Source: Candidatus Omnitrophota bacterium (GTDB lineage: Bacteria > Omnitrophota > Gorgyraeia > Tantalellales > Tantalellaceae). Taken from it: a stretch of DNA of 64,000 nucleotides. The notes beneath the pieces are model-generated. The model did not search any database. It was given only the letters and a program-made list of their open reading frames with translations, and had not been told where the DNA came from. Each line of letters opens with the position of its first letter. Positions within the stretch are counted from its first letter, which is position 1. A program made the position numbers and the translations under genes. Shown here in pieces: positions 37,983 to 53,765 of the stretch. The stretch spans positions 155 through 64,154 of the forward strand of contig JBDRKO010000026.1 of NCBI GenBank assembly GCA_043813915.1, given 5' to 3'.

Positions 37983-38601
37983 CGGAGTATTGGTAGAATC
38001 TCTGGATATAAAGACCGCGGCTTTTGGGAAGTTATTCGAAGATAAAGGGAAAGATGTCCGGAATGAGGTGGTTAAATATCATCTGGATAATTCAGGGGTG
38101 TCACGGTTCGAGAAAATAAAGTACATATACCGTGAGATATTGAAAGAAGCCTTAGATGAAAAGACGTTCGTTCTTTTGTGTGACAGGTTCTCCAGTCTTG
38201 TCGTAGAAGAAGTGATAAAAGCGCCGTATGTGGCGGGAGCTTTGGAACTTCTTGAAGGATACAGGCGGAAGTACTCCTTTTATATATGCTCGGGAACTCC
38301 TCTAGGGGAACTGGAGAAGATCATAAAGAAGCGGAAGATAGACGGATATTTCGAGGAAGTTTACGGTTCTCCCATGAGAAAAGAGGATATAGTGAGAAAC
38401 ATATTAAAAGAGAACAGATTGCGCTCCGATGAGACGGTCTATGTAGGGGATGCTATGAGCGATTACAAGGCCGCTGAAAGTAACGCGGTCCGTTTTATAG
38501 GACGCAATACGGCGGATAAAGAGGGATTATTCTCCGATATAGATTGTATCAAGATAGACGATCTTGAAGGATTGCCGCGGATGTTGGAGCAATTGGGATG
38601 A
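37951..38601 (+). CDS. HAD-superfamily hydrolase, subfamily IA (phosphatase)
   Basis: IIFDFDGVLVES (motif I DxDGxL), the later VGDAMSDYKAA (motif IV) and an inserted cap domain. Confidence 0.7.
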   Translation: MMIKTIIFDFDGVLVESLDIKTAAFGKLFEDKGKDVRNEVVKYHLDNSGVSRFEKIKYIYREILKEALDEKTFVLLCDRFSSLVVEEVIKAPYVAGALELLEGYRRKYSFYICSGTPLGELEKIIKKRKIDGYFEEVYGSPMRKEDIVRNILKENRLRSDETVYVGDAMSDYKAAESNAVRFIGRNTADKEGLFSDIDCIKIDDLEGLPRMLEQLG

Positions 38602-39036: not shown

Positions 39037-40449
39037 ATGAAAACTATGCTTGAAAAGCTCATCATAAATAAAGACGCGTCTGTAAAGGAAGCGATAAGGG
39101 CTATAATGGAGAACGGATGCGGATGTGTCTTTTTAACGGATGAAAATGGGAGCTTTGTAAGCGTCATTACTGACGGAGATATAAGAAAAGCCATTCTTTC
39201 CGGAAAACAGATCGCTGATAACGCCCGGACGATATCTAACAAGGATCCTCTTTTTGTGCGGGATGACATGAGCGAGGAAGACGCTCTGGCGCTGCTCAGG
39301 AAGAAAAAGAATATAAAACATAAGGTGCAGCACGGAGGAACTCTTAAGGTCCCTGTCGTGGACGGGTCAGGAAAGATAGTCAATGTCCTTTTTGTCTCAC
39401 TCAAGGAAGACGATCAGCATATAATAGAGTGTGATATCAAAAATACCGAAGAAACAAAGAAACTGACGGGAGTGAAATCGGTCCTCATAACCGGAGGAGC
39501 CGGTTATCTCGGTTCAATTCTATGCAGGAAGCTTCTTGATAAAAATTATAAGGTCAGGGTCCTGGATAATCTCATGTACGGAGATGAAAGCATCAGAGAA
39601 CTTTACGGCGATCCTGATTTCGAGCTTATAAAGGGTGATATAAGGAACCTGCAGACAGTAGTAGAGGCCATAAAAGGTGTAGACGCCGCTGTCCATCTGG
39701 CCGCGATAGTGGGGGATCCGGCTACTACAAGATTCCCGCAGGAAGCGATAGACGTGAACTATCTCGCTACTAAGGTCATGGCGGAAGCCTGTAAATATTA
39801 TCAGGTCAACAGATTCATCTTCGCCTCGACCTGTAGCGTTTACGGGGAAAGCATAAAAGACGGAGAAAAACTGACCACGTCTTCCAGGACAAATCCGGTC
39901 TCACTATACGCTAAAAATAAACTCGAATCGGAAAAAGCCATACTTTCCATGGCGGACGGGAATTTTTTCCCTATAGTTCTCAGAATGGCTACGCTTTACG
40001 GCCTTTCGCCGAGGATGAGGTTCGACCTGGTGGTAAATCAATTGACCGCCGAAGCCGTGGTCCGGAAAAAGATCAATATATTCGGCGGAAAACAGTGGAG
40101 GCCTTTTCTGCATGTGAGTGACGCCGCGGGAGCTTACATAAAATGTCTGGAGTTGCCGTATGGTAACTCCAAGAGCCGTATACTTAATATCGGTACGGAT
40201 GACCAGAATTACCGGATAGACGATGTCGGTAAATTGATAAAAGACCTTGTGCCCGATACGGAAGTTAATATTTTGGAGAAAAATATCGATATAAGGAATT
40301 ACAAGGTGCTTTTTAATGACTCTGTCAGTATATTGGGGTTCAACGCGGATATGAAAGTATCTGACGGGATCTCGGAGATCCGTGATTCCATGGAAGGCGG
40401 AAGTTATTCCGATTACAAGGACCCGAAATACAGTAACGTAAGTAAATAA
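39037..40449 (+). CDS. Fusion of an N-terminal CBS-domain pair with an extended-SDR nucleotide-sugar epimerase/dehydratase
   Basis: Residues 1-120 carry two CBS-like repeats (VKEAIRAIMENGCGCVFLTDENGSFVSVITDGDIRKAIL...; ...LKVPVVDGSGKIVNVLF). Residues ~150-470 begin VLITGGAGYLGSILCRKL and carry YAKNK and RPFLHVSD. Paralogous to the N-terminal half of 18851-21031. Confidence 0.6.
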   Translation: MKTMLEKLIINKDASVKEAIRAIMENGCGCVFLTDENGSFVSVITDGDIRKAILSGKQIADNARTISNKDPLFVRDDMSEEDALALLRKKKNIKHKVQHGGTLKVPVVDGSGKIVNVLFVSLKEDDQHIIECDIKNTEETKKLTGVKSVLITGGAGYLGSILCRKLLDKNYKVRVLDNLMYGDESIRELYGDPDFELIKGDIRNLQTVVEAIKGVDAAVHLAAIVGDPATTRFPQEAIDVNYLATKVMAEACKYYQVNRFIFASTCSVYGESIKDGEKLTTSSRTNPVSLYAKNKLESEKAILSMADGNFFPIVLRMATLYGLSPRMRFDLVVNQLTAEAVVRKKINIFGGKQWRPFLHVSDAAGAYIKCLELPYGNSKSRILNIGTDDQNYRIDDVGKLIKDLVPDTEVNILEKNIDIRNYKVLFNDSVSILGFNADMKVSDGISEIRDSMEGGSYSDYKDPKYSNVSK

Positions 40450-40463
40450 AAAGGAGCGTAATA

Positions 40464-40916
40464 ATGGAAAGGACTATGCCCAGACCCGAACTGGTGGAAC
40501 TCGAGTTCTACAGCGATGAAAGGGGATACCTTGTTCCCATGAGTAACAGTCTGAGTCCCGAAATGAACAGCGCGGTAAAGAGGACTTATATCGTCGGTAA
40601 TTTCGGCAAAGGTGTTATACGCGGCATGCATTTTCACAAGAAAGAGACAAAGATATTTTATATTGCTCACGGCGCGGCGAAATTCGTAGGAATAAACCCT
40701 GATTCCCCGGAAGACGACAGGCACGTTTTTGTTCTTTCCGATAAAAAGCCCGGTATGGTCATAATCCCTCCGGGATATGCGAACGGTTGGATGTCTCTTG
40801 CGGATGATACGATATTAGTCGCGCTTTCAACGTCAAGTTTCGAGGAAAGCGCAAAGGACGATAAGAGGTATGACCCTTATCAGTGGGGGGATATCTGGTC
40901 GTTAAAAGCGAGGTGA
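40464..40916 (+). CDS. Cupin-fold sugar 3,4-ketoisomerase-like protein (FdtA/QdtA/WxcM-C-like)
   Basis: 150 aa; RGMHFHKKETKIFYIAHGAAKFV resembles the RGxHxH...E motif of FdtA-type ketoisomerases. Confidence 0.5.
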   Translation: MERTMPRPELVELEFYSDERGYLVPMSNSLSPEMNSAVKRTYIVGNFGKGVIRGMHFHKKETKIFYIAHGAAKFVGINPDSPEDDRHVFVLSDKKPGMVIIPPGYANGWMSLADDTILVALSTSSFEESAKDDKRYDPYQWGDIWSLKAR

Positions 40917-40923
40917 TGGTACT

Positions 40924-42090
40924 ATGGACAAAAGAATAATCCCATACGGCAGTCAGTGGATATGTTCTGAGGATATAGATTCGGTAAAAAGTGTTTTCGA
41001 TACGGGATGGATAACGCAGGGCCCCAAGATCCGTCAGTTCGAGGAAGCCGTCGCGGACTATTGCGGAGTGAAATACGCGGTTGCCGTATCATCCGGGACG
41101 GCAGCTCTTCATATAGCGGTCCTGGCGGCGGGTCTGAAAAAAGGCGATACCGCTATTACGACACCGATGACCTTTTTAGCGACGTCGAATTCGGTGCTTT
41201 ACAGCGGGGCAAGTCCGGTGTTCGCCGACATAGATATAGATACGGTGAATATAAGCGTAGCCCAGATAAAGAAAAAGATAACCAAAAGGACAAAAGCGAT
41301 ATTACCGGTGGATTTCGCGGGTCTTCCCTGTGATCTGGCTGAGATAAAGAACATAGCGGAAGAGAACGGCCTTACCGTAATAGAGGACGCCTGCCACGCG
41401 TTAGGGGCGACATATAAGGATTCCAGAACGGGTGACTGCAGGTATTCCGCTATGACCATATTCAGTTTTCATCCGGTGAAACATATTACGACAGGTGAAG
41501 GCGGAATGGTAACGACAAATTCCGCAAAACTGTACGAAAAACTGCTGGCGCTCAGGAATCATGGTATGTATAAGCATAGCAGCACAGTTAAAAAAGAAGG
41601 ACCATGGTATTACGAGATGGAAGAGCTCGGTTTTAATTACAGGATAACGGATCTTCAGACCGCGTTGGGTTTGAGCCAGATGAATAAACTGGACTCGTTC
41701 CTCGAAAGGAGACGCGGCATAGTAAAGGAATATGATAAAGCGTTCGCGGAGCTCGGAGACCTGGTGATATTGCCTGAAGCAGAGCGTGATGACAGAAGGT
41801 CCGCCTGGCATCTTTATCTTTTTAGGCTGAATAAAGCCCTGAAATATATAACAAGAAGAGAATTCTTCGAAGAGCTCCACCGGAGGGGCATAAAAGTCCA
41901 GGTGCATTATATTCCGATAACGAGACAGCCGTATTACCGTAAACAGGGATTTAAGAGGACAGATTTCCCTAACGCGGAAAAATATTATAAAAGTGTAGTT
42001 TCTCTTCCGCTTTATCCGAGGATGACGGATGAGGACGTGGATTACGTAGTAAAGAACGTGAAAGAGATAATAAGGAGTTCTTGCGGATGA
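40924..42090 (+). CDS. DegT/DnrJ/EryC1/StrS-family PLP-dependent sugar aminotransferase
   Basis: IPYGSQWI, VSSGTAALHIAV, DACHALGA, FSFHPVKHITTGEGGMVTT (Lys in SFHxxK); 388 aa. Confidence 0.8.
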   Translation: MDKRIIPYGSQWICSEDIDSVKSVFDTGWITQGPKIRQFEEAVADYCGVKYAVAVSSGTAALHIAVLAAGLKKGDTAITTPMTFLATSNSVLYSGASPVFADIDIDTVNISVAQIKKKITKRTKAILPVDFAGLPCDLAEIKNIAEENGLTVIEDACHALGATYKDSRTGDCRYSAMTIFSFHPVKHITTGEGGMVTTNSAKLYEKLLALRNHGMYKHSSTVKKEGPWYYEMEELGFNYRITDLQTALGLSQMNKLDSFLERRRGIVKEYDKAFAELGDLVILPEAERDDRRSAWHLYLFRLNKALKYITRREFFEELHRRGIKVQVHYIPITRQPYYRKQGFKRTDFPNAEKYYKSVVSLPLYPRMTDEDVDYVVKNVKEIIRSSCG

Positions 42091-43001
42091 ATATATCCAA
42101 ATTGACGCTTGGTACGGCCCAGCTGGGGTCTGTCTACGGTATTGCCAATAAGACCGGTAAACCGGATACTGAGGGAGCGGCGGAGATACTGAAGACGGCG
42201 GTAAGTAAGGGCATAAACACTTTCGATACCGCGTATATGTACGGTGACAGCGAGGAAGTTATAGGAGCTTTTCTGACCTCACGTTCCGGAGGCGGCCAGG
42301 CGCCGAATATAATATCAAAATTGCCCAAGATAGAGCTGGCAGAAAATACCGGATTTGATGGAGTCTATGCTGTAGTAAAAGAATACGTTACAACTTCGCT
42401 TGAGCGGTTACATCTGCGCAGCATACCTATATATATGATGCATAGCGCTTTAAATCTGGATTCTCATAATGGGAATGTTGTGAAGAGCCTTATACGTCTC
42501 AGGGATGAAGGGCTTATAGAGAAGGCGGGAGTGTCGGTATACCATCCGCGTGAGGCGGAACGTGCTTTGGAATTCAGCGCCTTAGAAGCGGTACAGATAA
42601 TGCTGAATGTTCTTGACCACCGCTTTTTGGCAAAAGAACTCCTTCCGCGTCTGGCGGCGGAAAAAACAGTGTTCGTCCGCAGTGTTTTTCTTCAGGGATT
42701 ATTCTTTCTGGAAGACGGAGAATTGCCCGCGAACCTTAAAGGGGCCGCCGGATATTTAAAAAAGCTCAAAAGCCTTTCGGAAGAAGAAGGCAAGGGGATA
42801 GATGAGATAGCTATGGGGTTCGTTGCGGGTTTCCGTGAAGTGGACAGCATGGTCATAGGCGCTGAATCGGCCGAGCAGGTCTTAAGGAACGCGGAATTGC
42901 TTGATCGCGCGAAGATCAGTGATGACTTGCGCGGGAGGATAATGGAAGTTTTTTCCGGAGTCCCGGAGGAGATAGTGGTTCCTTACATGTGGAACGCTTA
43001 G
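42081..43001 (+). CDS. Aldo/keto reductase family oxidoreductase
   Basis: LTLGTAQLGSVYG...INTFDTAYMYGDSEE (AKR N-terminal signature with catalytic D/Y); 306 aa. Confidence 0.65.
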   Translation: MRMNISKLTLGTAQLGSVYGIANKTGKPDTEGAAEILKTAVSKGINTFDTAYMYGDSEEVIGAFLTSRSGGGQAPNIISKLPKIELAENTGFDGVYAVVKEYVTTSLERLHLRSIPIYMMHSALNLDSHNGNVVKSLIRLRDEGLIEKAGVSVYHPREAERALEFSALEAVQIMLNVLDHRFLAKELLPRLAAEKTVFVRSVFLQGLFFLEDGELPANLKGAAGYLKKLKSLSEEEGKGIDEIAMGFVAGFREVDSMVIGAESAEQVLRNAELLDRAKISDDLRGRIMEVFSGVPEEIVVPYMWNA

Positions 43002-43016
43002 GAGGGAGGAGTAAAA

Positions 43017-43808
43017 ATGGGAATAAATACTTTATTCGATCTGGAAGGCAAAACAGCTGTTGTGACCGGAGGCACTTCTCATCTCGGCAGGGCTATCTGT
43101 GAAAGTTTGATGGGAGCCGGCGCGGATGTCGCGGTTGCCGGAAGAGACCTTGAAGCGTGCCGAAAACTGGCAAAAGAACTATCCGCCGAATATAACAGTA
43201 CGGCCGCCGCCGTTAAAATAGACATATCTTCCGTGAGCAGCGTGAATAAGTGTATCGAGGATGTATATAAAATATTCAAACGCGTCGATATTCTGGTAAA
43301 TAACGCGTGTTTCGGAGCCGCCGGAGGTATCGAACAGCTCACTGAAGCTAAATGGAAAAAAGGTATCGACGGTACTATAAACGGGGTTTTCAGATGTACG
43401 CAAGCGGTTACGCCGTATATGAGAAAACAAAAGGGCGGAGTGATAATCAATATCGCTTCGATGTACGGGGTCATTTCTCCGGATCCCGGCATATACGGAG
43501 ACTCCGGGTTCAATAATCCTCCGAACTATGGAGCGGGAAAAGCCGCCGTGATACAATTCACAAAGTACGGCGCGTGTCATCTGGCGGACAAAAATATACG
43601 GATAAATTCTATTACCCCGGGAGCGTTCCCGTCCGAAAAAGTCCAGAAGAACAAAAAATTCGTAAACAATCTGAAGAAAAAAATACCTCTCGGACGTATA
43701 GGAAGACCGGATGAGCTTAAAGGCGCGGTGCTGTTCTTGGCATCGGACGCTTCAAGTTATGTTACCGGTACTAATATCATAGTAGACGGGGGATGGACGG
43801 CATGGTAG
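43017..43808 (+). CDS. Classical short-chain dehydrogenase/reductase (SDR)
   Basis: GKTAVVTGGTSHLGRAI (TGxxxGxG), NNAG, SMYG...YGAGKAA (YxxxK); 263 aa. Confidence 0.7.
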   Translation: MGINTLFDLEGKTAVVTGGTSHLGRAICESLMGAGADVAVAGRDLEACRKLAKELSAEYNSTAAAVKIDISSVSSVNKCIEDVYKIFKRVDILVNNACFGAAGGIEQLTEAKWKKGIDGTINGVFRCTQAVTPYMRKQKGGVIINIASMYGVISPDPGIYGDSGFNNPPNYGAGKAAVIQFTKYGACHLADKNIRINSITPGAFPSEKVQKNKKFVNNLKKKIPLGRIGRPDELKGAVLFLASDASSYVTGTNIIVDGGWTAW

Positions 43809-44563
43809 ACGCGGAGAAAAAGCTCAAAGTAACGGCGATAGTGCAGGCCCGCATGGATTCCGCACGGCTTCCCGGCAAAGTGTTAATGGATATATCCGGG
43901 TATCCGATGCTCCAGCATATAATAGACCGGCTGGCCGTTTGCGCGTCGATAAATAAGACAGTGGTCGCTACAAGTACGAATGATAAGGATAATGCCGTCG
44001 AGGAGTTTTGCCGGACGAGGGGGATACCTTTTTACAGAGGAAGTGAACGCGATGTTCTGGATAGATACTATCAGGCGGCATCTATCCAGCAGGCCGATAT
44101 AGTCGTAAGGGTAACGGCGGATAACCCTCTGATAGACCCAAAAGTAATAGATAACGTGATAGATCGATATATAAAGGACATGGACAAATTCGATCTCGCG
44201 GGAAACGCCGTCAGCCACAGATGTCCGATAGGTTTCGGCGTGGAGGTGTTCTCATTTTCATGTCTCGAGAAGTGCCGTAAAGAAGCTAAGAAAGATTATC
44301 AGAAAGAACACGTGACGGTCTGTGTATACGAGAACACCGATAAGTTCAGGATACTCAGTATCGATGACGGTCCCGACCTGTCGGGTCTGAGGCTGACCGT
44401 TGACGAAGAAGCGGACATTAAGTTCGTACGTGAGATATATAAGAGGTTGTACCGCGAAGGAGAGGTTTTCGGGCTGGAAGAGGTACTGAACGTAATAAAA
44501 GAAGAACCCGAGCTTAAAGATATAAACAGCGCAGTAAAACAGTTCACGATAGCCGGGATATGA
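43793..44563 (+). CDS. Cytidylyltransferase, CTP_transf_3 family (SpsF/PseF-like)
   Basis: TAIVQARMDSARLPGKVL (ARxxSxRLPGK signature of SpsF/acylneuraminate cytidylyltransferase-like proteins). The start may be the internal ATG at 43802. Confidence 0.55.
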   Translation: MDGMVDAEKKLKVTAIVQARMDSARLPGKVLMDISGYPMLQHIIDRLAVCASINKTVVATSTNDKDNAVEEFCRTRGIPFYRGSERDVLDRYYQAASIQQADIVVRVTADNPLIDPKVIDNVIDRYIKDMDKFDLAGNAVSHRCPIGFGVEVFSFSCLEKCRKEAKKDYQKEHVTVCVYENTDKFRILSIDDGPDLSGLRLTVDEEADIKFVREIYKRLYREGEVFGLEEVLNVIKEEPELKDINSAVKQFTIAGI

Positions 44564-45174
44564 AAAGGAGAGATGATATGCCGTCGGTATTGAGCAATTT
44601 TAACGAAAGAAGTTTTTGTTCCATGCGCCGGGAGTATCTGGAGGATATCAAGAACTGGAGAAACGCCCAGATGGAGGTTTTGAGGCAGTGGAAACCCCTT
44701 ACCGAGCACGACCAGAAAAAGTGGTTTGAGCTTATAAGCACCGACGATAAGCAGATAATCTTCGCGATACTGGGTCCGTCCCTGCCGGGGTCCAAAGAAG
44801 CTTCCGGCGGGCTTATAGGGTATTGCGGTATTACCAACCTGGACACCAAGAACCGCAGAGGAGAAATATCTTTTTTGGTAGACCCAGAGAGAGTGAAGGA
44901 CGAGAAGATATACAGGGATGATTTTTTGTCGGCACTGTATATGCTTTGCCGGTATGCTTTTGAAAGTATTGACCTTAACAAGCTTTTTACCGAAACCTAT
45001 GTTTTCAGGGAATATCATATAGGTATACTCGAGGAGTTCGGGCTTAAGGCTGATTCGATCCTGCGTCAGCATGAGTTCATTAACGGCAAATTTTACGATT
45101 CCGTGATCCATTCGATATTATGCGATGAATGGCCCGGAGTAAAAGAAAGGATAGATAATGAACCTGGAAAATAA
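44560..45174 (+). CDS. GNAT N-acetyltransferase, PseH-like
   Basis: IKNWRNAQMEV (the WRN motif seen in PseH/RimL-type GNATs) and a later GNAT core; 204 aa. Alternative start at 44578. Confidence 0.4.
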   Translation: MKRRDDMPSVLSNFNERSFCSMRREYLEDIKNWRNAQMEVLRQWKPLTEHDQKKWFELISTDDKQIIFAILGPSLPGSKEASGGLIGYCGITNLDTKNRRGEISFLVDPERVKDEKIYRDDFLSALYMLCRYAFESIDLNKLFTETYVFREYHIGILEEFGLKADSILRQHEFINGKFYDSVIHSILCDEWPGVKERIDNEPGK

Positions 45175-46114
45175 GAATGTTCTGGTAACCGGCGGAGCCG
45201 GTGTAATAGGCAGGGAGCTTATTTCGAGGCTTGTCTCTTCCGGCGCAAACGTGCTATGCGTAGACCGCGAGCCAAAACCGGAGGATATGTCCGGCCGTGT
45301 CAGATACCGTAAAGCGGATATCTCGGAAATGGATATGTCCCCGATAGAGGAATTCGATCCGGAAATAATATTTCATCTCGCGGCAAGTTTTGAGAGGACT
45401 ATAGAAACACCGGATTTCTGGGAGACGAATTTCAGGGATAACATACTAGTGAGCCATCGTATTATCGATACCGCGAAAGATCTGAAGAACCTTAGAAAAT
45501 TCGTATTTGCCTCATCTTATCTTATATACTCGCCGGATCTGTATCTTAAAAGCGCGCCCGAAGGTCAAGCCAGGCAGTTAAAGGAGGAAGATCCTTATAA
45601 CACAAGGAACCTTACCGGCGGCGCGAAATACTATAACGAGAACGAATTTAACTTCATACACGATATGTACGGCGCCTTCACGCTTCTTTCGGCAAGGATA
45701 TTCAGGGTATACGGAAAAGGTTCCAGGGACATAGTATCCAGATGGGTCAGGATGGCGCTCCGCGGCGAAGAGCTGGTCGTTTATAACGAGGAAAATATAT
45801 TTGATTATATTTTTGCCGGTGATGTGGCCGAAGGTCTGTTAAGGATATGTGAGAGCTCGGACAAGAGTAACGTGATAAACCTGGGGACCGGTCTGCCTAA
45901 AAAAGTGAAAGACGTGGTCGCGGCTATACGGAAAGAGATACCCGGACTTAAATGGAAATATGCCCCGGATACCGGGGATTATGAAGCTAGCTGCGCGGAA
46001 ACGTCAAAACTGTCCGGAATAACGGGATGGATCCCTCCGACGGAGCTGAAAGACGGCATCAAAATGATAGTTGAACATGAAAAGAAATTTAAGATAAAGG
46101 CGGAACATGCATAA
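45158..46114 (+). CDS. NAD-dependent epimerase/dehydratase (extended SDR; PseB/CapD-like candidate)
   Basis: VLVTGGAGVIGRELISRL and a later YxxxK region; 318 aa. Confidence 0.55.
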   Translation: MNLENKNVLVTGGAGVIGRELISRLVSSGANVLCVDREPKPEDMSGRVRYRKADISEMDMSPIEEFDPEIIFHLAASFERTIETPDFWETNFRDNILVSHRIIDTAKDLKNLRKFVFASSYLIYSPDLYLKSAPEGQARQLKEEDPYNTRNLTGGAKYYNENEFNFIHDMYGAFTLLSARIFRVYGKGSRDIVSRWVRMALRGEELVVYNEENIFDYIFAGDVAEGLLRICESSDKSNVINLGTGLPKKVKDVVAAIRKEIPGLKWKYAPDTGDYEASCAETSKLSGITGWIPPTELKDGIKMIVEHEKKFKIKAEHA

Positions 46115-47000
46115 AGGCAGATCCGTTGTCGAGTGCGGAGAATATAAGGTCATCGACTGCAGCGAGTGCGGGTTCAAACATCTGGACCCCATACCTTCGG
46201 AAGAAGAACTCGGCAGATATTATAAAGAACGGTATTTTCAGGAGGAAATACCCAAACTTCTTTCTCCCGAAAAAGAGGCGCGGGAATCGGAATGGTCGGA
46301 ATTATGGCACAGGGACAGGTTGTTGACCTTTAACAGGTATGCGCTCGGAGAAACCCGTTCTTTGCTTGACGTGGGATGCGGGAACGGTTTTTTTGCGGAT
46401 TTCATGAGACGGAACTATTGGGAAGTGACCTGCGTGGAACCGTCCGAAAAGGCCTATCTCCACGCAAAAGAACTAGGGCTCAACGTATTCAAAGGGACAT
46501 TCGAGAATTTTGTAGAAGAAAAAAGAACTGGGTCTTTCGATGCTATCAATTTGAAAAGCGTACTTGAACATATGCCGGATCCGGCGGGGACTCTTGAGAA
46601 TTGTAAGAGTCTTCTGAAGAGAGAAGGGATAATGTGTGTATATATCCCGAATGACTTTAACTCTTTTCAATTGCGGGCGCATAGATCAGGCAGGAGAAGG
46701 TGGTGGGTCGATTCCCCCGGGCACATAAACTATTTTAATTTTAAAGATCTGAGAGGTCTTTTGAAACGTACGGGGTTTGATATTATTTCAGAGACAACGG
46801 ATTTTCCTATGGAGATATTCCTTTTATTGGGGAAAAATTATGTAGATGACGATACGGTCGGTAAAGCATGTCATGATCTAAGGATGAAACTTGAGATGAG
46901 CGTTCCCGGATGGTTCAGAAGGGGCGCATATTCCGCTTTAGCCAAATTCGGTATGGGAAGAAGCTGTATGATATACGCGAGACCGACAGGGGCGGTGTGA
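46107..47000 (+). CDS. Class I SAM-dependent methyltransferase with N-terminal Cys4 Zn-ribbon
   Basis: CGEYKVIDCSECGF, then LLDVGCGNGFFADFM (motif I); 297 aa. Confidence 0.65.
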   Translation: MHKGRSVVECGEYKVIDCSECGFKHLDPIPSEEELGRYYKERYFQEEIPKLLSPEKEARESEWSELWHRDRLLTFNRYALGETRSLLDVGCGNGFFADFMRRNYWEVTCVEPSEKAYLHAKELGLNVFKGTFENFVEEKRTGSFDAINLKSVLEHMPDPAGTLENCKSLLKREGIMCVYIPNDFNSFQLRAHRSGRRRWWVDSPGHINYFNFKDLRGLLKRTGFDIISETTDFPMEIFLLLGKNYVDDDTVGKACHDLRMKLEMSVPGWFRRGAYSALAKFGMGRSCMIYARPTGAV

Positions 47001-47001
47001 T

Positions 47002-47982
47002 ATGAAGGTAAATGTGTTGATAACAAGCGCTTCCAGGAAAGTATGGCTGGTCAACGCTTTTAAGAAAGCGCTTTCTACCGAGGGCAAAGGTAAGGTCGTA
47101 TCCGTAGACTCAAACGGCATGTCAGCCGCGCTGCGGGTAAGCGACAGCCATTCCCTTGTTCCTTATTCATCGGATGATGATTTTATCCCGAGCATATTGG
47201 AAATATGCCTGAAGGAAGACATAAAGCTCATAGTTCCGACCAGAGATGAGGAATTACTGCTTTTTGCCGAAAACAGCGGTAAGTTCATGGAAAAAGGGAT
47301 CCGCGTCATGATATCCCGTCCCGAAGTTATCAGGATATGCCGGGATAAATATGAGTTTTTCAGATTTCTCGAGAAAAAAAATATTCCTACGGTTAAGACG
47401 TATCTTCCCGGAGAGAAAACCCTGTTCAGGGATAACGGGAAATATCCTCTGATAATAAAACCGCGGCGCGGTTCCGGAGGCAAAGGAGTGTTCAAAGCCG
47501 AGAATGAGGATGAACTCAGGTTCTTCAGCGGGTATGTTAAGGATCCCGTGATCCAGGAGTTTGCCGAAGGTAAGGAATACACGATAGATCTTTTCTCGGA
47601 TTTTGATGCTAAAGTCCTTACGGCCGTTCCCAGAGAGAGGATCGAGGTCTTCAGCGGCGAGTCGTATAAATCCCGCACTGTCATGGATAAAGACATGATC
47701 GAAAAGGCCGGGATCCTGGCGGAAGAACTCGGCACGGTAGGGCATATAACCATTCAGTGCATAAAAAATGATAAAGGTATAAAATTCATCGAGATCAATC
47801 CGCGTTTCGGAGGGGGAGCCGCCCTGGGTTTTAAAGCGGGAGCGGATACTCCGGCGCTGTTGGTAAAACTTATTTCCGGTCAACCCGTGAAAAGGGACCC
47901 GGTAGAGTTCATTCCGGATGTAGTGATGCTGAGATATACGGACGACATTTTTCTGGACGGAAAGACCATGAGGCAATTATGA
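47002..47982 (+). CDS. ATP-grasp-fold carboxylate-amine ligase
   Basis: PLIIKPRRGSGGKGVFKAENEDEL (ATP-grasp phosphate-binding loop), EFAEGKEYTIDLF, ERIEV; 326 aa. Confidence 0.6.
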   Translation: MKVNVLITSASRKVWLVNAFKKALSTEGKGKVVSVDSNGMSAALRVSDSHSLVPYSSDDDFIPSILEICLKEDIKLIVPTRDEELLLFAENSGKFMEKGIRVMISRPEVIRICRDKYEFFRFLEKKNIPTVKTYLPGEKTLFRDNGKYPLIIKPRRGSGGKGVFKAENEDELRFFSGYVKDPVIQEFAEGKEYTIDLFSDFDAKVLTAVPRERIEVFSGESYKSRTVMDKDMIEKAGILAEELGTVGHITIQCIKNDKGIKFIEINPRFGGGAALGFKAGADTPALLVKLISGQPVKRDPVEFIPDVVMLRYTDDIFLDGKTMRQL

Positions 47983-48662
47983 GAAAAACGGTCATTTTTG
48001 ATCTTGATAACACTCTTTATGACGAAATACAGTTCGTGAAAAGCGGATTTAACGAGGTTTCCGGGTGGATGTCTGATAAATTCGGGGTAGATAAAGAGAA
48101 GATCTACGGGTTTTTGATGGATGTGCTGGATACGGACGGAAGAGGCAGGGTATTCGATACCGTTCTTCAAAAAATAGGTCTTAAAGAGACCGGTCTTGCG
48201 GGAAAGATGGTAGAGGTGTATCGTTCTCACTATCCGGATATCAGTTTATATCCGGAAACGAAAGAGGTACTTTTGACCCTTAAGTGTTCCGGGTATAAAC
48301 TCGGCATAATTACCGACGGGGATGCAGGGGTGCAGAGAAAAAAAGTAGAAGCTTTGGGTATCGGCTGTCTTTTTGACACTATAATATTTTCCGATGAATA
48401 CGGCACACAGAACCGGAAACCCAGTTTTCATCCTTACATGAAGGCTCTGGAAGGACTAGGCTCTCTTCCGGAAGAATCGGTATATGTCGGAGACAACCCG
48501 AACAAGGATTTTGTTTCAGCCAGGAAAATAGGGATGGGGACCATAAGGATAATGAAGGGTGAATATCGCAGCGTGGACGCCAAGACCGAAGATGACGCGG
48601 ACCACAAGGTCCGGGACCTTAACGGCGCGCTTAAAATATTAATGGATCCAAAAGGAGAATGA
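47979..48662 (+). CDS. HAD-superfamily hydrolase (subfamily IA phosphatase)
   Basis: VIFDLDNTLYD (motif I), VGDNPNKD (motif IV); 227 aa. Confidence 0.7.
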   Translation: MRKTVIFDLDNTLYDEIQFVKSGFNEVSGWMSDKFGVDKEKIYGFLMDVLDTDGRGRVFDTVLQKIGLKETGLAGKMVEVYRSHYPDISLYPETKEVLLTLKCSGYKLGIITDGDAGVQRKKVEALGIGCLFDTIIFSDEYGTQNRKPSFHPYMKALEGLGSLPEESVYVGDNPNKDFVSARKIGMGTIRIMKGEYRSVDAKTEDDADHKVRDLNGALKILMDPKGE

Positions 48663-49720
48663 TGGCAAGGACTGTCAGTATAGCCGGAAGGAAGATAGGC
48701 GAGGGACATCCCGTTTTTATAATAGCGGAACTTTCCGCGAATCATCGGCAGAGTTATACGAACGCGGTCAAGCTTATAAAAGCCGCGAAATCTTCCGGCG
48801 CGGATGCCGTGAAACTTCAGACGTATACGCCCGATACCATAACAATAGATGTTGATAACAGGTTTTTCAGGGTGGATCATCCCGAGTGGGGCGGTCAGAC
48901 GCTGTATCAGCTGTATAAAAAAGCGTATACCCCGTGGAAATGGTTCGGGAAATTAAAAAAAGCGGCGGATGACGCGGGGATAATATTTTTTTCAACGGCT
49001 TTTGATAAGACAAGCGTGGATTTTTTGGAAGAACTGGGTGTTCCGGCGCACAAGTTATCCTCTTTTGAACTTGTGGACCTGCCCCTGATCGAATATACCG
49101 CGAAAACAAAAAAACCCCTGATACTTTCAACCGGTATGGCTACGGAAAACGAAATAAAAGAGGCGGTTGATACCGCGAAAAAAGCGGGAGCTAAAGATAT
49201 TATCCTTCTGAAATGCGTCAGCAGCTACCCCGCGGATCCCGCGCAGATGAACCTGAAGATGATCCCTCATCTTGAGAAGACGTTTTGTTTGCCGGTAGGC
49301 CTTTCCGATCATGGGCTGGATATGGCGGTTCCGTCCGCCGCTGTAGCGCTCGGCGCGAAAGTCATAGAACGGCATTTTACTTTATCAAGAAATACGAAGT
49401 CTCCTGACAGCTTTTTTTCTACCGAGCCGGATGAATTGAAAGAACTTATAACTAATATCCGCAGTGTGGAGAAAGCCCTGGGCAAAGTGCGGTACAGTTT
49501 GTCCCGCGAGGAAAAGAAAAGCCGTCTCCACCGCAGGTCGCTTTTCGCGGTAAAAGACATAAAAAAAGGAGAGATATTCACCGGGGAGAACATAAGGTCT
49601 ATAAGGCCGGCATACGGCATTTCTCCTAAATACGAAAAAAAGATGATCGGCAGGAGATCATCTAAAAACATAAAAAAGGGAACGCCGATCAGTTTCGGCC
49701 AGATCGGAAAAAGCAGATGA
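48659..49720 (+). CDS. Nonulosonic acid synthase family (NeuB/PseI/LegI-like) with C-terminal SAF domain
   Basis: RKIGEGHPVFIIAELSANH...GADAVKLQTY (NeuB TIM-barrel N-terminus) and a C-terminal antifreeze-like domain (IKKGEIFTGENIRSIRP); 353 aa. Confidence 0.8.
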   Translation: MMARTVSIAGRKIGEGHPVFIIAELSANHRQSYTNAVKLIKAAKSSGADAVKLQTYTPDTITIDVDNRFFRVDHPEWGGQTLYQLYKKAYTPWKWFGKLKKAADDAGIIFFSTAFDKTSVDFLEELGVPAHKLSSFELVDLPLIEYTAKTKKPLILSTGMATENEIKEAVDTAKKAGAKDIILLKCVSSYPADPAQMNLKMIPHLEKTFCLPVGLSDHGLDMAVPSAAVALGAKVIERHFTLSRNTKSPDSFFSTEPDELKELITNIRSVEKALGKVRYSLSREEKKSRLHRRSLFAVKDIKKGEIFTGENIRSIRPAYGISPKYEKKMIGRRSSKNIKKGTPISFGQIGKSR

Positions 49721-51573
49721 AACTGATAATTGTACCGCCTGAGGTCGATAGTACGGATGATATCAGGAAGATATCGGACGGGGAGAGTTTTATCTTCACG
49801 GCGGATCATTTATTGAAGAAAGAGCTTGTGCGCGGAAAAATAGCGCGTCCGGATAAAGTATTGACCATTAGCGACGTCGCGGATGATAGTGTTTTCGATG
49901 ATGTCAACGATCTGACAAGACGCTATTCCAGAGAGTGGTTCAAAGCGGAAGAGGCGGATGAAATCCTGTCTTTCAGGGGGGTGAACCTGGCCGGACAGCT
50001 TGTAGCCGAAACAAGTTTTTATTTTATAAAAGTGTTGAGGGCGGTATGTATATCGCAGGCTATTCGCGGCTCTTACGGCGGCAAGGCGGAATTTATTCTG
50101 GCCGATGATGAAAGCATCTGGGCAAAAGTGTTCAAATATACGGCCCGGAAGAGAGGTATAGGGTTAGATATAAGAAAGTTCGCTCCCGCCAAAGGTTCGT
50201 TGGACAGCGGGATATTCCCGATCAAGGATATGATCAGAAGATCCGCGGCCAGACTTTACGGTCGGACGCGGCGGAATATTCCCTCAGGCGGTATATTATA
50301 TTCGTGCGCTCCGGGTTATTTTAAGCTGTTCCGGGATATTTCCGCGACAGGGGGGACGTCATATTACTTAAGGCCTGAGTTTTCGCCCCGGACGGGGATC
50401 GAGTTCCGCGGGAAAGAAACGGTCTATCTGACCCCCGAGTGTTTTATTGAGAAAGAGGACAAAACGATATGCCGAAAGTGGCTCAAGAACAGGGATATCC
50501 GGGCGGTGCTGGACTCTCATTTTAAGGACTCGGATTTTTTTGTATATAAAGGAGATAACCTATGGGAGATCATTAAGCATGATCTTTTTCATATGCTGGA
50601 TCAGGCGCTTTTTCGGGGAGCGGTATGGGTTCTCGGTTTTAACAGGATATTAGACAGCCTCAAACCGAGAACTATAATAGTGGAAGAAAATATATGTCCT
50701 TTCAATAAGACCCTTATAGAATGCGCCGACAAAAAAGGTATACCCAGCGTATATCTTCTGCACGGCCTCTTGACATATGATCTTTTTTCAAGCATAGGGT
50801 CGGCTTCTACGGTCGTTGTGCCGGGAACATATACGAAGAAATTCTTAACAGATCATGGAGTGGCAGAAAATATGATCGCGGAAATAGGGCTTCCTTATTA
50901 CGAGAAGAAAATAAGTTCTATCGACAGGACCGGGAGCAGACGAAAGTTTTTCTCAAGGTACGGTCTTGATGACGGAAAAAGGATAGTGATGCTGGCTTCA
51001 CATGATGTTTTCACGGAAAAACGTCCGTATTATACAGGGAACCCGCATACTCCTGAAAATGCCGAAAGAATGATGGAAATAACCTGTGAGGCCGTGCGGG
51101 CTTCAAAAAACACCAGGATGGTGATCAAGATACATCCCATGGACGGTAATCTCCGGTTTATCGTGAATGTGCTGAAACGGATGAAGATGACAGAAGATGT
51201 TCTTATTGTGAAAGACTTCGATGCCATGGAGCTTATCGCTATCAGTGACCTGGTCCTTTGCGGGTGTTCGACCGTTTATCTCGAAGCTTTACTTCTAAAA
51301 GTCCCGGTCCTGGTATTCGATGATGTTGAGAGAGGGTTTCTCCGGAAATTGGGCAGTGAGTTTGTCAGCCTGAAGGATAAAGAGAAAAGCGTAAAAAGTA
51401 TTAACGGTCTTATTGAAGATAAACTGCTTAGAACGGAGCGTTTAAAAAGGCAGGAAGATGAACTTTCGTGGCATTTTGTGGATAAGAATAATGGGTCTCA
51501 GGAAAAGTTCAGGGAGCTTTTAAACAGGATCGCGATAGAAAACGGAGGACGGGTATATGAAAAGAGCGGATAA
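49717..51573 (+). CDS. Large GT-B-fold-like protein with HP motif (TagF/KpsS/bacterial-sialyltransferase-like)
   Basis: 618 aa. C-terminal region VIKIHPMDGN...ISDLVLCGCSTVYLEALLLKVPVLVFDD resembles the HP motif and nucleotide-binding strand of TagF-like or polysialyltransferase-like GT-B enzymes. Confidence 0.35.
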   Translation: MKLIIVPPEVDSTDDIRKISDGESFIFTADHLLKKELVRGKIARPDKVLTISDVADDSVFDDVNDLTRRYSREWFKAEEADEILSFRGVNLAGQLVAETSFYFIKVLRAVCISQAIRGSYGGKAEFILADDESIWAKVFKYTARKRGIGLDIRKFAPAKGSLDSGIFPIKDMIRRSAARLYGRTRRNIPSGGILYSCAPGYFKLFRDISATGGTSYYLRPEFSPRTGIEFRGKETVYLTPECFIEKEDKTICRKWLKNRDIRAVLDSHFKDSDFFVYKGDNLWEIIKHDLFHMLDQALFRGAVWVLGFNRILDSLKPRTIIVEENICPFNKTLIECADKKGIPSVYLLHGLLTYDLFSSIGSASTVVVPGTYTKKFLTDHGVAENMIAEIGLPYYEKKISSIDRTGSRRKFFSRYGLDDGKRIVMLASHDVFTEKRPYYTGNPHTPENAERMMEITCEAVRASKNTRMVIKIHPMDGNLRFIVNVLKRMKMTEDVLIVKDFDAMELIAISDLVLCGCSTVYLEALLLKVPVLVFDDVERGFLRKLGSEFVSLKDKEKSVKSINGLIEDKLLRTERLKRQEDELSWHFVDKNNGSQEKFRELLNRIAIENGGRVYEKSG

Positions 51574-52270
51574 GCTGGATCACAGAAAGTATAAGTACAG
51601 TGACATGAACGCCCTTATCAGGGAAATAGAAGGGCTTTGCGACGGACTGGACCAAAAACATCCCATGGAGCGTAAGATCCGTTTCCTCTTAGACATAAGA
51701 GGGTATCTGAAGGTGAACGGTATAAGGGGAAGTTATATCGAATTCGGGTCATATCATTCGGAGATGCAGTATGCCGCGTATAACGTTCTGGATGAAACGG
51801 GTATGATGGATTCATATGTGGGCCTTGAGATCTTTTCCGGTGAGCCCGAACTGACCCCGGAAGAAAAGAAAAGTTTTCCCGCTATGTGTACGGGAGACTT
51901 CTCTTGCGATCATGAAGCTGTTTTGAGTTTTGTCGAGAACAATTTCGGAGGTAAAGGCGTTATCGTAAAAGGGGATTTCAGGAAAAAGGAGGTCATGGCC
52001 CGGTGTGACGCGCATCTTCCGCTGAGCGTAGCGGTCATAGACTGCAACCTCCTTTCTTCCACTGAATACGCTTTGAAGTATACGCTTAAGAATATGACGC
52101 CCGGAGGCGTGATATTTATCGATGATTATCTGAGTAATATGAGCGGCGGTATTCCCAGAGTAAAGGATCTTTTTGAAGCGGTTGTAAGGGAAGAAGGAAA
52201 AGAGGTCCTAGAACATAATTTTTATCCGCCGTTCGCGAAGTCCTTCATAGCTGTGGGTAAACAGGCATGA
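51557..52270 (+). CDS. TylF/MycF-family (macrocin-O-methyltransferase-like) SAM-dependent O-methyltransferase
   Basis: GSYIEFGSYHSEM (FGxYxG), a later DCNLLSSTEYALKYTLKNMTPGGVIFIDDY (DxDxYESTxxxLxxLxxxxxxGGxxxxDDY pattern). Confidence 0.5.
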   Translation: MKRADKLDHRKYKYSDMNALIREIEGLCDGLDQKHPMERKIRFLLDIRGYLKVNGIRGSYIEFGSYHSEMQYAAYNVLDETGMMDSYVGLEIFSGEPELTPEEKKSFPAMCTGDFSCDHEAVLSFVENNFGGKGVIVKGDFRKKEVMARCDAHLPLSVAVIDCNLLSSTEYALKYTLKNMTPGGVIFIDDYLSNMSGGIPRVKDLFEAVVREEGKEVLEHNFYPPFAKSFIAVGKQA

Positions 52271-52280
52271 GAATAAGACG

Positions 52281-53765
52281 ATGAATAAAATAAAAAGCAT
52301 AGGATATGTGGCCGGTTCAAAACTCGCGGCGTTCGTAATGGGCATAACGCGGGGATTTCTTGTGCCCGGATATTTGGGCCCACAACTTTACGGGGTAATA
52401 GGTCTCCTTAAGCTGGTTAAGATAATACTGGGTTTTACGGCGTTCGGTATGGACCAGGCGTATTTCAGACTGTCTCTGGAATACGGCGGCAGTGACCGTG
52501 ATGAAAGCAGGAAAAAGGCGCTTGAGGACAATGTGTTCACATTCCTTTTTTGTTCGGCCCTTATCGGTATGATCCTGACCGTTCTTCTGCCGTTTATCCT
52601 GAAAACGAGTGATGCCGGTCTTCAGAAAATAATGATATTCTGTTTCGCCGTGACCGGTGTGCAGCATTTTTTTCAGTTCACGGGAAATTTTTTCTTTAAG
52701 ACGATGCATATTAAGAAAGAGTTCCGGTTCATATCGCTGATGAACATCGTGCAGCCTTTGATAGCGCTTATTCTTATACTCGCTATGGTGTTCCGATGGA
52801 AGATATACGCGGTGTTTATCGCGGATCTTGTAGCGGTTGCCGCGGTCCAGATATTGTATTTCCGCAATGCGGGGATAATGCCGGAATTAAGGATACACCT
52901 GAGCGAATTCCGGAAGACATTCCGGTATGCTTTACCGTTCTTTATAGCGGGTATATGTTTTTATCTGTTCCGGTTCACGGACAGGACCGTTATAGCTTCT
53001 TTTCTGACGCTCCGGGAACTGGGGCTTTACACATTCGCTATAGGGATAGCGGAGAACACCAGGATGCTGAGCGTCGCTATCGATGAGGTGTTTTCGCCTT
53101 TCATGGTAGAAAAAATAAGCAAAGCGGATAACCTTCGTTCCCTTTCAGGCGAAATAACGTCGTATACGTATACACTGCTTTTTATAACCACAGCCGTTTC
53201 GCTTTTATCGGTCTTTTTCTGTCCGTTCATAAAACTTATATTACCCAAATATGCCGACGCGCTTCTTGTTCTCAAGATACTCCTTATCAATATAATACCG
53301 CGGACCTTTATTCTCTATCAGATACTGCTTTTAAGCTCGCCCAGGGTGAACAGGCAGAACCATATAAATATCGCCATGACCGTATCAGGGATCATTAACG
53401 TTGTTTTGAGCATATTTCTGATCAAACGGGGTTACGGTATAACAGGCGTCGTCGCGGCGACCTTTCTATCTCAGATATTAATGGCCGCGTTCTATCTTAT
53501 AACATCCGGTAAATATTATTTAGCCGGGAAAAAGACCGTATTCTATTTCAAAATATCCGTTACTATGGCGATCATGATCATATATTGTTATCTGCAGAGG
53601 ATGGATGCCGCGGTCACTTTAAAGAACTTCACCCATGACTCCGTCGCGTTTCTCGCGCTGACCGGAGCTCTTGCATTCATTTTTAAAAAAGAAATAACCG
53701 GGATCATCTCGAAATTCAAGGAAAAAATGATTTCAACGGAAAAGAGCGGGGAAGAGGTAACGTAA
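52281..53765 (+). CDS. Wzx-type oligosaccharide flippase (MOP superfamily, polysaccharide biosynthesis protein)
   Basis: 494 aa, about 12-14 TM helices and a typical Wzx-like N-terminus (KSIGYVAGSKLAAFVMGITRGFLVPGYLGPQLYG). Confidence 0.55.
   Translation: MNKIKSIGYVAGSKLAAFVMGITRGFLVPGYLGPQLYGVIGLLKLVKIILGFTAFGMDQAYFRLSLEYGGSDRDESRKKALEDNVFTFLFCSALIGMILTVLLPFILKTSDAGLQKIMIFCFAVTGVQHFFQFTGNFFFKTMHIKKEFRFISLMNIVQPLIALILILAMVFRWKIYAVFIADLVAVAAVQILYFRNAGIMPELRIHLSEFRKTFRYALPFFIAGICFYLFRFTDRTVIASFLTLRELGLYTFAIGIAENTRMLSVAIDEVFSPFMVEKISKADNLRSLSGEITSYTYTLLFITTAVSLLSVFFCPFIKLILPKYADALLVLKILLINIIPRTFILYQILLLSSPRVNRQNHINIAMTVSGIINVVLSIFLIKRGYGITGVVAATFLSQILMAAFYLITSGKYYLAGKKTVFYFKISVTMAIMIIYCYLQRMDAAVTLKNFTHDSVAFLALTGALAFIFKKEITGIISKFKEKMISTEKSGEEVT

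Follow-up and report, generated by a model that had tools for sequence, protein, structure and literature searches.

The pathway to CMP-activated pseudaminic acid (CMP-Pse), as known from Helicobacter and Campylobacter, leads through a keto sugar, C4 amination, N-acylation and condensation with phosphoenolpyruvate (PEP) to CMP activation. We analyzed a gene cluster that appears to follow the same logic on contig JBDRKO010000026.1 of an uncultured Omnitrophota bacterium (assembly GCA_043813915.1). The cluster consists of twelve genes, here called g1 to g12, and lies in a stretch of 64 kb, which is referred to as the window. It contains an ATP-grasp ligase gene (g10), a HAD phosphatase gene (g11) and a pseudaminic acid synthase (PseI) gene (g12) in direct succession.

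Several described systems resemble parts of this cluster. In reviews, PglB2 of Neisseria is described as an 'ATP grasp/phosphoglycosyl-transferase' that makes 4-glyceramido-2-acetamido-2,4,6-trideoxyhexose (GATDH), not di-N-acetylbacillosamine (diNAcBac) (PMC11130364, PMC6959607). In capsule biosynthesis of Campylobacter jejuni, the ATP-grasp enzyme Cj1438C joins a phosphorylated partner through an amide bond, after which the phosphate is taken off by the HAD phosphatase Cj1435 (PMC11800379). The same species converts D- to L-heptose with the 6-OH kept, using Cj1427 (C4 dehydrogenase), Cj1430 (C3/C5 epimerase cupin) and Cj1428 (C4 reductase) (PMC10680097). Pse with an N7-glyceroyl group occurs in Tannerella forsythia and Vibrio vulnificus; its genes are reported as unidentified, and in work on T. 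forsythia the origin of N-glyceroylation is termed 'a major challenge' (PMC5378307). Knock-outs of T. forsythia members of the BFO_1060 family showed that they are needed in the transfer of Pse and Leg derivatives (PMC5420450). In C. jejuni, the aminopeptidase-like Cj1295 (435 aa) is required for di-O-methylglyceroyl-Pse, and Cj1296/7 is an N-acetyltransferase (PMC3068675). Few genes that provide non-acetyl N-acyl groups have been described.

We consider it probable, on balance, that the Omnitrophota operon makes, activates and transfers a Pse-type 5,7-diamino nonulosonic acid with a non-acetyl N-acyl group. All 12 open reading frames (ORFs) of the original prediction were confirmed on the + strand between 39037 and 49720, together with the domain families assigned to them (Pfam and NCBIfam). 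Genes g1 to g12 are separated by 15 bp or less, or overlap. The original prediction had ended the unit at 49720; the packing runs past this point to 56446, with every gap from 39037 to 56446 at most 15 bp or an overlap. Thus, g1 to g12 are the core of a single operon from 39037 to about 56446. The flanking gaps are 435 bp before g1 and 184 bp before the gene at 56631, and a simple scan of the 435-bp gap for sigma-70 promoters and terminators gave no match. Nearly the whole window is a single island of glycan-biosynthesis genes on the + strand, with 42–48% G+C. A fragment of the locus is also present in GCA_018817765.1, as a 4.4-kb contig whose ATP-grasp, HAD and PseI genes are identical to those of the window. 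The twelve genes are as follows.

39037..40449, + strand: g1, CBS module with an extended short-chain dehydrogenase/reductase (SDR); Pfam Epimerase 161 bits, CBS 53 bits.
40464..40916, + strand: g2, small cupin of 150 aa; dTDP_sugar_isom 49 bits, FdtA 36.5 bits.
40924..42090, + strand: g3, DegT protein (430 bits, Pfam), a PseC-type C4 aminotransferase.
42081..43001, + strand: g4, aldo/keto reductase (AKR); Pfam Aldo_ket_red 101 bits.
43017..43808, + strand: g5, classical SDR resembling FabG and gluconate 5-dehydrogenase; adh_short_C2 182 bits, no equivalog passed.
43793..44563, + strand: g6, cytidylyltransferase of the SpsF/6oew type; CTP_transf_3 123 bits, PDB entry 6oew 132 bits.
44560..45174, + strand: g7, GNAT N-acetyltransferase; Acetyltransf_4 62.5 bits.
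45158..46114, + strand: g8, atypical extended SDR of 318 aa; Epimerase 101 bits.
46107..47000, + strand: g9, S-adenosylmethionine (SAM) methyltransferase; Methyltransf_23 87.5 bits.
47002..47982, + strand: g10, ATP-grasp ligase; ATP-grasp_3, PylC-like_N.
47979..48662, + strand: g11, HAD phosphatase; HAD_2 97 bits, DxDxT motif intact.
48659..49720, + strand: g12, NeuB and SAF domains, pseudaminic acid synthase.

In the proposed pathway, g1 would oxidize C4 of a UDP-N-acetylhexosamine (UDP-HexNAc) to give a 4-keto sugar, g2 would epimerize it beside the keto group and g3 would aminate C4. Together, g1, g2 and g3 would replace PseB and PseC, as synteny and active-site motifs suggest. The ATP-grasp enzyme g10 would activate a small carboxylic acid, probably phosphorylated, and ligate it to the 4-amino group in place of the acetyl-CoA-dependent PseH/PglD step. 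Removal of the phosphate by g11 would follow, with N-glyceroyl as the best guess, and g7 and g9 could further trim the acyl group. The nucleotide would be removed by a hydrolase other than PseG, since no PseG was found in the window or its near flanks. Condensation of the hexose with PEP would be catalyzed by g12 and formation of the CMP-sugar by g6, and g4 and g5 would form a coupled pair of redox enzymes that possibly inverts a hydroxyl. A 618-aa BFO_1060-like GT-B protein encoded behind g12 would transfer the sugar, and a Wzx protein would flip the glycan.

The Pfam scan covered 60 long ORFs of a greedy ORF map of the window. Equivalogs were called with curated NCBIfam models and their own cut-offs, and absence of a match refers to a threshold of E ≤ 1e-5. 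For the flanks, called genes over 10 kb downstream and 2.8 kb upstream of the window were inspected through exact-protein look-ups. Related loci (L numbers) were collected by scanning one genome per species with an alignment of the ATP-grasp protein, which yielded 80 loci from many phyla, and the window proteins were mapped onto these loci by tblastn.

The assignment to a nonulosonic acid pathway, already made in the original prediction, holds: g12 scored 459 bits against the PseI model (TIGR03586, cut-off 340) and 318 bits against NeuB (TIGR03569), under the cut-off of 400. As g12 passes PseI, it is not of the KdsA/DAHP synthase type, a grouping that had been raised as a check. Its identity was 46–56% to the PseI proteins of L008, L010 and L011, which are loci with canonical PseB and/or PseG, and 46–48% to those of L005 and L007. 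PseI is reported to accept varied N7 amides (PMC13576459). The aminotransferase g3 scored 508 bits against PseC (TIGR03588, cut-off 423.5), compared with 266 bits for LegC and 314 bits for ArnB, and was 45–53% identical to PseC of canonical loci. Since g3 passes the PseC equivalog, it is assigned as a C4 aminotransferase and not a C3 aminotransferase of the FdtB type.

Of the canonical Pse set, PseC and PseI reached their cut-offs in the window, whereas PseB, PseH, PseG and PseF did not. A profile of five true PseB sequences searched against the six-frame translation of the window gave at best 49.5 bits, for the SDR at 57265. For PseG (TIGR03590), the profile consisted of four sequences above the cut-off of 154 (184–210 bits) and one below it (100 bits), and the same six-frame search of the 64-kb window returned nothing, the best value being E = 0.99. 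No PseG-type domain (Glyco_tran_28_C) was listed among the called genes of the two flanks. For PseH (TIGR03585), g7 had no match to any NCBIfam model, so that the description of this GNAT as PseH-like was dropped. For PseF (TIGR03584), g6 had no match and the gene at 56631 scored 46.5 bits against a cut-off of 206; g6, formerly labeled SpsF/PseF-like, belongs to the SpsF/6oew type. The SDR g8, once called PseB-like, matched no equivalog, and its catalytic Tyr is replaced by Thr or Cys across the family.

A WecB-like gene at 2312 had been named as a candidate for a PseG/LegG-type hydrolase. It passed the model of the non-hydrolyzing WecB (310 bits, cut-off 210) and reached 70 bits against NeuC (cut-off 236), and the candidate was rejected.

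These gaps in the canonical set could be read as an ordinary Pse5Ac7Ac pathway, with PseB, PseG, PseH and PseF encoded elsewhere in the genome and g1, g2, g4, g5 and g7 to g11 serving other sugars. The window covers only 64 kb of a 183-kb contig and forms an uninterrupted glycan island that encodes many other enzymes of sugar-nucleotide metabolism, and g7 might be a divergent PseH. We nevertheless regard this explanation as unlikely: the genes are translationally coupled in one operon, the order g1-g2-g3-NeuB-CTP recurs in two independent contigs whose called genes include neither PseB nor PseG, and several phyla as well as an archaeon share the block of SDR, ATP-grasp, HAD and PseI.

The proposed non-acetyl N-acyl group is the task assigned to g10 and g11. 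The g10 family is large, with 10,199 representatives at E ≤ 1e-3 and 5,051 at E ≤ 1e-10, and is spread over many bacterial phyla as well as methanogen and halobacterial metagenome-assembled genomes (MAGs). In about 58 of the 80 loci, a HAD gene adjoins the ATP-grasp gene. Cultivable carriers of g10 and g11 homologues include Pontibacillus litoralis (L009), Paenibacillus (L023 and L025) and Thermincola (L043). The closest loci, in which the block comprises a g8-like SDR, ATP-grasp, HAD and PseI, belong to magnetotactic Nitrospirota, Elusimicrobia and a Methanobacteriaceae archaeon, and variants of the block were found in Planctomycetes (L004) and a Patescibacteria MAG (L006). In Nitrospirota and Methanobacteriaceae, a canonical PseG (184–210 bits, cut-off 154) precedes the block, and in several ATP-grasp loci a canonical PseB gene (488–530 bits) immediately precedes that of PseC. 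Synteny with the window is almost complete at the Elusimicrobia locus L010, which has, in this order, genes for PseB, PseC, AKR, cytidylyltransferase (CTP gene), aminotransferase, GNAT, SDR, ATP-grasp, HAD and PseI. Because the block recurs across related loci, the additional genes are taken as accessory genes that recur in Pse clusters, not as a chance neighborhood.

At L007 (2930–6699), a lysine-2,3-aminomutase-like radical SAM gene, two D-Ala-D-Ala-ligase-like ATP-grasp genes and a GNAT gene stand before the block of PseG, SDR, ATP-grasp, HAD and PseI. These additional genes may supply a beta-amino-acid acyl group.

Fusion proteins connect the ATP-grasp domain with several partners. ATP-grasp and HAD domains are fused in P0041, P0172, P0178, P0229 and P0302, and a PglC-like phosphoglycosyltransferase (PGT) is fused to ATP-grasp in P0230 and P0247; one member is annotated as a sugar transferase of a Gaiellales MAG. 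P0275 (762 aa) carries PGT, ATP-grasp and HAD in one protein. Further fusions in the family are ATP-grasp with a hexapeptide acyltransferase (P0242) and tandem ATP-grasps (P0173, P0249 and P0251). In Firmicutes loci (Lachnospiraceae, Paenibacillus and Thermincola), the genes encode a PglF-like dehydratase, DegT, Bac_transf (a PglC-like PGT), ATP-grasp, HAD and a GT4 glycosyltransferase. This order is a bacillosamine-type pathway with the ATP-grasp in the position of the PglD acetyltransferase. An architecture like that of PglB2 was found in the g10 family at L018, L022, L023 and L043; in the window, the partner of the ATP-grasp is the Pse pathway and not a PGT.

Fusions and synteny thus link ATP-grasp and HAD in function, and precedents suggest their chemistry. 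The enzyme g10 probably ligates a phosphorylated small acid to the sugar 4-amino group (later N7), which g11 would dephosphorylate. Our best guess for the acid is phosphoglycerate, which would lead to an N-glyceroyl group; the main alternative would be phosphoserine, which would provide an amine for the GNAT. An ATP-grasp-dependent, non-acetyl N-acyl decoration together with methylation, as first predicted, remains the best reading. Our literature search found no paper linking ATP-grasp with Pse/Leg, or the cupin, to nonulosonate biosynthesis, and two papers on Clostridium and Geobacillus flagellin contained no mention of these genes.

The AF2 model of g10 (pLDDT 89) was used for a fold search, in which the nearest structure was the uncharacterized 2pn1, followed by biotin carboxylases, PurK, PylC and PurT. 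With these neighbors, and with the name 'carbamoyl phosphate synthase-like' given to the g10 family in NCBIfam, an enzyme like PurT or PurK could be proposed that N-formylates the 4-amino group with formate or N-carboxylates it with bicarbonate, and 7-N-formyl Pse is a known sugar. This is improbable in our judgment, as the similarity to these folds is fold-level only (15–21% identity), the precedent of PglB2 is a glyceroyl group, and formylation or carboxylation would leave the obligate HAD partner and the fusions to GNAT and methyltransferase partners unexplained.

A role of g11 as a nonulosonate-9-phosphate phosphatase (like animal NANP), with g10 phosphorylating or activating the hexose before condensation, would agree with the 4-bp overlap of g11 and g12, a weak similarity of g11 to N-acylneuraminate-9-phosphatase (36 bits) and a 6-OH that g1 may leave in place, but is very unlikely: about 46 loci with adjoining ATP-grasp and HAD genes have no NeuB within 10 kb, the PGT fusion P0275 points to a UDP-amino sugar and not a nine-carbon acid as the target, and ATP-grasp sugar kinases are rare.

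The preferred pathway, with ATP-dependent acylation of a 4-amino sugar, also requires an entry that yields this sugar, for which we propose the triad g1, g2 and g3. From its sequence, g1 is proposed to be a UDP-HexNAc C4 dehydrogenase that fills the PseB slot. It falls far under the PseB, LegB and RmlB cut-offs of NCBIfam (49 bits against a cut-off of 408 for PseB, TIGR03589). Its best PDB match was 6vo6 (149 bits), which we take to be Cj1427, the GDP-heptose C4 dehydrogenase. The active site of g1 reads 'STCSVYG ... YAKNK' and has no Asp/Glu-Lys dehydratase dyad; the corresponding motif of 6vo6 is 'NTNSGYG', and 'SPRMR(F/L)DL' is common to both, in g1 as 'SPRMRFDL'. At the two acid/base positions of dehydratases, where the 4,6-dehydratases RmlB and PseB have Asp-Glu or Asp-Lys, g1 has Cys-Ser and 6vo6 has Asn-Ser.

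The cupin g2 starts 14 bp downstream of g1 and is proposed to be a C5 (or C3/C5) epimerase of the 4-keto sugar. RmlC entries were its best PDB matches, with QdtA close behind. Its family comprises 50 proteins of about 145–155 aa with conserved residues D18, R20, G21, R53, G54, H56, H58, K63, N107, D132 and D133, and all contexts examined had the order SDR, cupin and then either DegT or an RmlD-like reductase. The closest relatives (63–69% identity) lie on two MAG contigs, L082 and L083, in the order CBS-SDR, cupin, DegT, optional radical SAM, NeuB/SAF, CTP_transf_3, more genes and a 612–617-aa protein. The genes called on L082 and L083 include neither PseB nor PseG. The triad is 62–70% identical overall to its counterparts there (62–66% for g1 and 67–70% for g3), compared with only 41% for g12 against NeuB and only 35% for g6 against the CTP gene. 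Because the triad resembles L082 and L083 while g12 resembles the PseI of loci with canonical PseB and/or PseG, the window is a mosaic of two types of nonulosonate cluster. More distant relatives of g2 (45–58% identity) always occur in the arrangement SDR, cupin and RmlD-like reductase, and all partner SDRs share 'STCSVYG', 'YAxxK', 'SxRMRFDL' and 'QWRPF' with g1, as does the SDR half of a fusion protein encoded at 18851 in the window.

A gene at 18851–21031 (+ strand) encodes a 726-aa fusion of a g1-like SDR ('SSCSVYG', 'RMRFDL' and 'QWRPFLHV') and an ArnB/PseC-like DegT protein, whose DegT half scored 424 bits for ArnB and 383 bits for PseC, both under cut-off. This fusion is a Rosetta-stone link between the g1-type SDR and C4 transamination. 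Directly upstream of the triad in L082 (3071–7303) and L083 (3084–7304) are genes for a sulfatase and APS-kinase fusion, an ATP sulfurylase and a pyruvate-kinase-like protein, which suggests a local supply of 3′-phosphoadenosine 5′-phosphosulfate (PAPS) and sulfated glycans.

The original prediction had labeled the cupin FdtA-like and joined a 3-amino-3,6-dideoxyhexose branch to the nonulosonate branch, so that g2 would be an FdtA/QdtA-type 3,4-ketoisomerase and g3 a C3 aminotransferase. The Pfam FdtA score of g2 (36.5 bits) does exceed its cut-off of 23, QdtA structures were among the PDB matches, and the RGxHxH motif is invariant in the family. This branch is nonetheless highly improbable, because g3 passes the PseC equivalog; g2 scored higher on the RmlC-type model dTDP_sugar_isom (49 bits); there is no RmlA-type NTP_transferase in the 60 ORFs scanned with Pfam and no NCBIfam-scanned SDR at the RmlB cut-off; the triad in L082 and L083 directly precedes NeuB, which needs a 4-amino hexose for a 5,7-diamino acid, and a cytidylyltransferase; and the cupin partner in sister loci is an RmlD-like reductase. 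By sequence alone g2 may be a ketoisomerase; with a PseC-type partner, NeuB after the triad and these reductase contexts, such an activity is unlikely, and the contexts fit an epimerase acting beside a 4-keto group.

For the epimerase-type triad, a more specific proposal can be made. The entry would be free of both dehydratase and PseG, with the 6-OH kept, and would lead to an undescribed 9-hydroxy 5,7-diamino nonulosonic acid whose N7 carries a (methylated) glyceroyl or seryl group added by the ATP-grasp/HAD pair. We put this forward tentatively, as a possible but doubtful extension.

The accessory genes g4 to g9 also have counterparts in related loci. A protein of 554 aa at L008 (16210–17874, − strand) fuses a g6-like cytidylyltransferase (residues 6–208) to a g4-like AKR (residues 250–551), and because of this fusion g4 is considered functionally coupled to the cytidylyltransferase. 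The AKR gene adjoins the CTP gene in L004 and L010, and g5 homologues adjoin the AKR gene in L008 and L011; g5 is a possible redox partner of g4, and an inversion of a hydroxyl by oxidation and then reduction is a guess for the two. When both cytidylyltransferases of the window were compared by tblastn with the Pse-type loci L004, L006, L008, L010, L011, L013, L044 and L048, only g6 matched. As the sole window cytidylyltransferase with matches in these loci, g6 most likely makes the CMP-sugar, as a putative CMP-nonulosonate synthetase in place of PseF.

A homologue of g7 is located at the same position in L010 (37% identity), and P0212, a fusion of ATP-grasp and a g7-like GNAT, ties g7 to the ATP-grasp. 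In g8, the GGAGVIG motif is intact and the catalytic Lys is kept; the replacement of the catalytic Tyr by Thr or Cys was seen in six of six family members. A g8-like SDR gene is directly upstream of the ATP-grasp gene in L002, L005, L007, L010 and L011, and a g9-like gene has this position in L004, L044 and L075. The N-terminus of g9 is Cys-rich (C10, C18-x2-C21 and H25) and could form a zinc ribbon. Sequence searches of the PDB with g6, g7, g8 and g11 returned uncharacterized or generic matches only.

Several points weigh against the proposed pathway. The organism is an uncultured member of Omnitrophota, and the products of the operon are predicted from its genes. The window and its near flanks yielded no PseG, NeuC or other hydrolase of UDP-sugars. 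In g1, no residues of a 4,6-dehydratase were recognizable, so that a true 9-deoxy Pse product is not guaranteed. The family of g2 has an invariant RGxHxH motif, as is usual in FdtA/QdtA ketoisomerases. As for the GNAT g7, it could be no more than a diverged PseH. The likeness of g10 to PglB2 is one of architecture only, taken from the descriptions in reviews, and the identity of the acid is a guess because 2pn1 has no known function and the next neighbors are carboxylases, PurK and PurT. Finally, the 618-aa protein scored 53 bits against NF046086 (BFO_1060 family glycosyltransferase), compared with a cut-off of 200, and only its C-terminal GT-B half aligned.

The remaining genes of the operon and its neighbors are listed below.

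49717..51573, + strand: 618-aa protein, C-terminal GT-B domain; weak Epimerase_2 and Capsule_synth matches.
51557..56446, + strand: rest of the operon, with a TylF-like O-methyltransferase, a Wzx flippase, a 438-aa soluble protein without family match and a B12-binding radical SAM protein.
34221..38601, + strand: upstream genes for an AAC(3)-like N-acyltransferase, a DUF4910/DUF2172 protein, a dehydrogenase resembling phosphoglycerate dehydrogenase (PGDH) and hydroxypyruvate reductase, a cyclase-like hydrolase and a second HAD protein.
56631–57317, + strand: second cytidylyltransferase, CTP_transf_3 72 bits; in a separate sub-unit with an SDR (56631..58254).

The 618-aa protein contains an 'IHP' motif and one transmembrane-like segment, and had no similarity to PseG (E = 0.99). 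A search for its relatives returned a partial self-match only. The L082 cluster ends in a homologue of this protein (31% identity), and L083 ends in a size-matched gene with a weak Epimerase_2 match. We propose that it is a CMP-nonulosonate glycosyltransferase, BFO_1060-like at best by its sequence.

The upstream genes from 34221 to 38601 are possibly associated with the operon. The first two (34221–36373, + strand) encode the AAC(3)-like acyltransferase and a 440-aa DUF4910/DUF2172/HTH_47 'aminopeptidase-like' protein (35051–36373), a pair that fits the theme of a glycerate-derived acyl group when compared with Cj1296/7 and Cj1295, by description and size only. The longest ORF of the PGDH-like gene (36238–37302) overlaps the gene at 35051–36373 by 136 bp, and its true start is probably further downstream.

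The second cytidylyltransferase at 56631 of the original prediction is real, and the SDR of its sub-unit, at 57265, is the best match of the window to the PseB profile, although a weak one. Four radical SAM genes were found on the + strand (7943–9361, 32624–34231, 55058–56446 and 58251–60329), three of them with B12-binding domains; one of the four is KedN5-like (212 bits), a C-methyltransferase family. B12-radical SAM genes also lie inside the nonulosonate clusters of L082 and L083. The radical SAM genes of the window suggest C-methylated or otherwise radical-modified sugars. Between 17216 and 28220 (+ strand), three PMT_2-type and one YfhO-type polytopic membrane glycosyltransferases are interleaved with a GT2 and a GNAT gene, which suggests that glycans are transferred from a lipid carrier at the outer side of the membrane. 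A GT4 gene for 757 aa extends from 62859 (+ strand) past the right end of the window and has the coordinates 10817–13090 in L089. Two − strand ORFs at 62987–63959 are probably spurious shadows of this GT4 gene.

If the more specific proposal of a 9-hydroxy sugar holds, N-glyceroyl-type decorations on amino sugars of bacteria and archaea would have their long-sought genetic basis in the ATP-grasp/HAD module. The fusion partners of ATP-grasp and HAD point to one job, in which a 4-amino sugar would be N-acylated at the expense of ATP and the product then dephosphorylated. The triad suggests that the pathway can also be entered without PseB and PseG, perhaps toward a new sugar. For the Omnitrophota, which are tiny uncultured bacteria, more than 64 kb of glycan genes in one island imply that the cell surface is highly elaborate.

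Compared with the canonical CMP-Pse pathway, the window has orthologues of PseC and PseI, with the CBS-SDR and the cupin in place of PseB. It differs in having no PseG in the window or near flanks, no match to PseH, a cytidylyltransferase of the SpsF/6oew type instead of PseF, and seven extra enzymes in the operon. Pse5Am7Gra of T. forsythia, a Pse with an N7-glyceroyl group, is the kind of product proposed here. Tanf_01245 of the same species belongs to the BFO_1060 family, whose model the 618-aa protein matches, including the HP motif, with a score far under the cut-off. Genes 34221 and 35051 fit Cj1296/7 and Cj1295 in published description and size; they are parted from g1 by the 435-bp gap, and the C. 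jejuni group is on N5.

The trio of Cj1427, Cj1430 and Cj1428 resembles the triad in that g1 matches 6vo6 and is followed by a cupin gene, and sister loci add an RmlD-like reductase. In the window, the substrate is presumably UDP-HexNAc and not GDP-heptose, the last step would be transamination instead of reduction, and g1 has an N-terminal CBS module. The pair g10 and g11 appears to use the same two-enzyme ATP-grasp/HAD logic as Cj1438C and Cj1435. In that system the sugar gives the carboxylate and the partner the amine, whereas for g10 the sugar most likely gives the amine; Cj1438C is a TupA-like ATP-grasp of a different subfamily. As in PglB2, relatives of g10 appear to replace the 4-N-acetyltransferase after a 4,6-dehydratase and a C4 aminotransferase, and some are fused to a PglC-like PGT. 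In contrast to PglB2, the ATP-grasp of the window is a separate protein, encoded in a nonulosonate operon together with a HAD partner.

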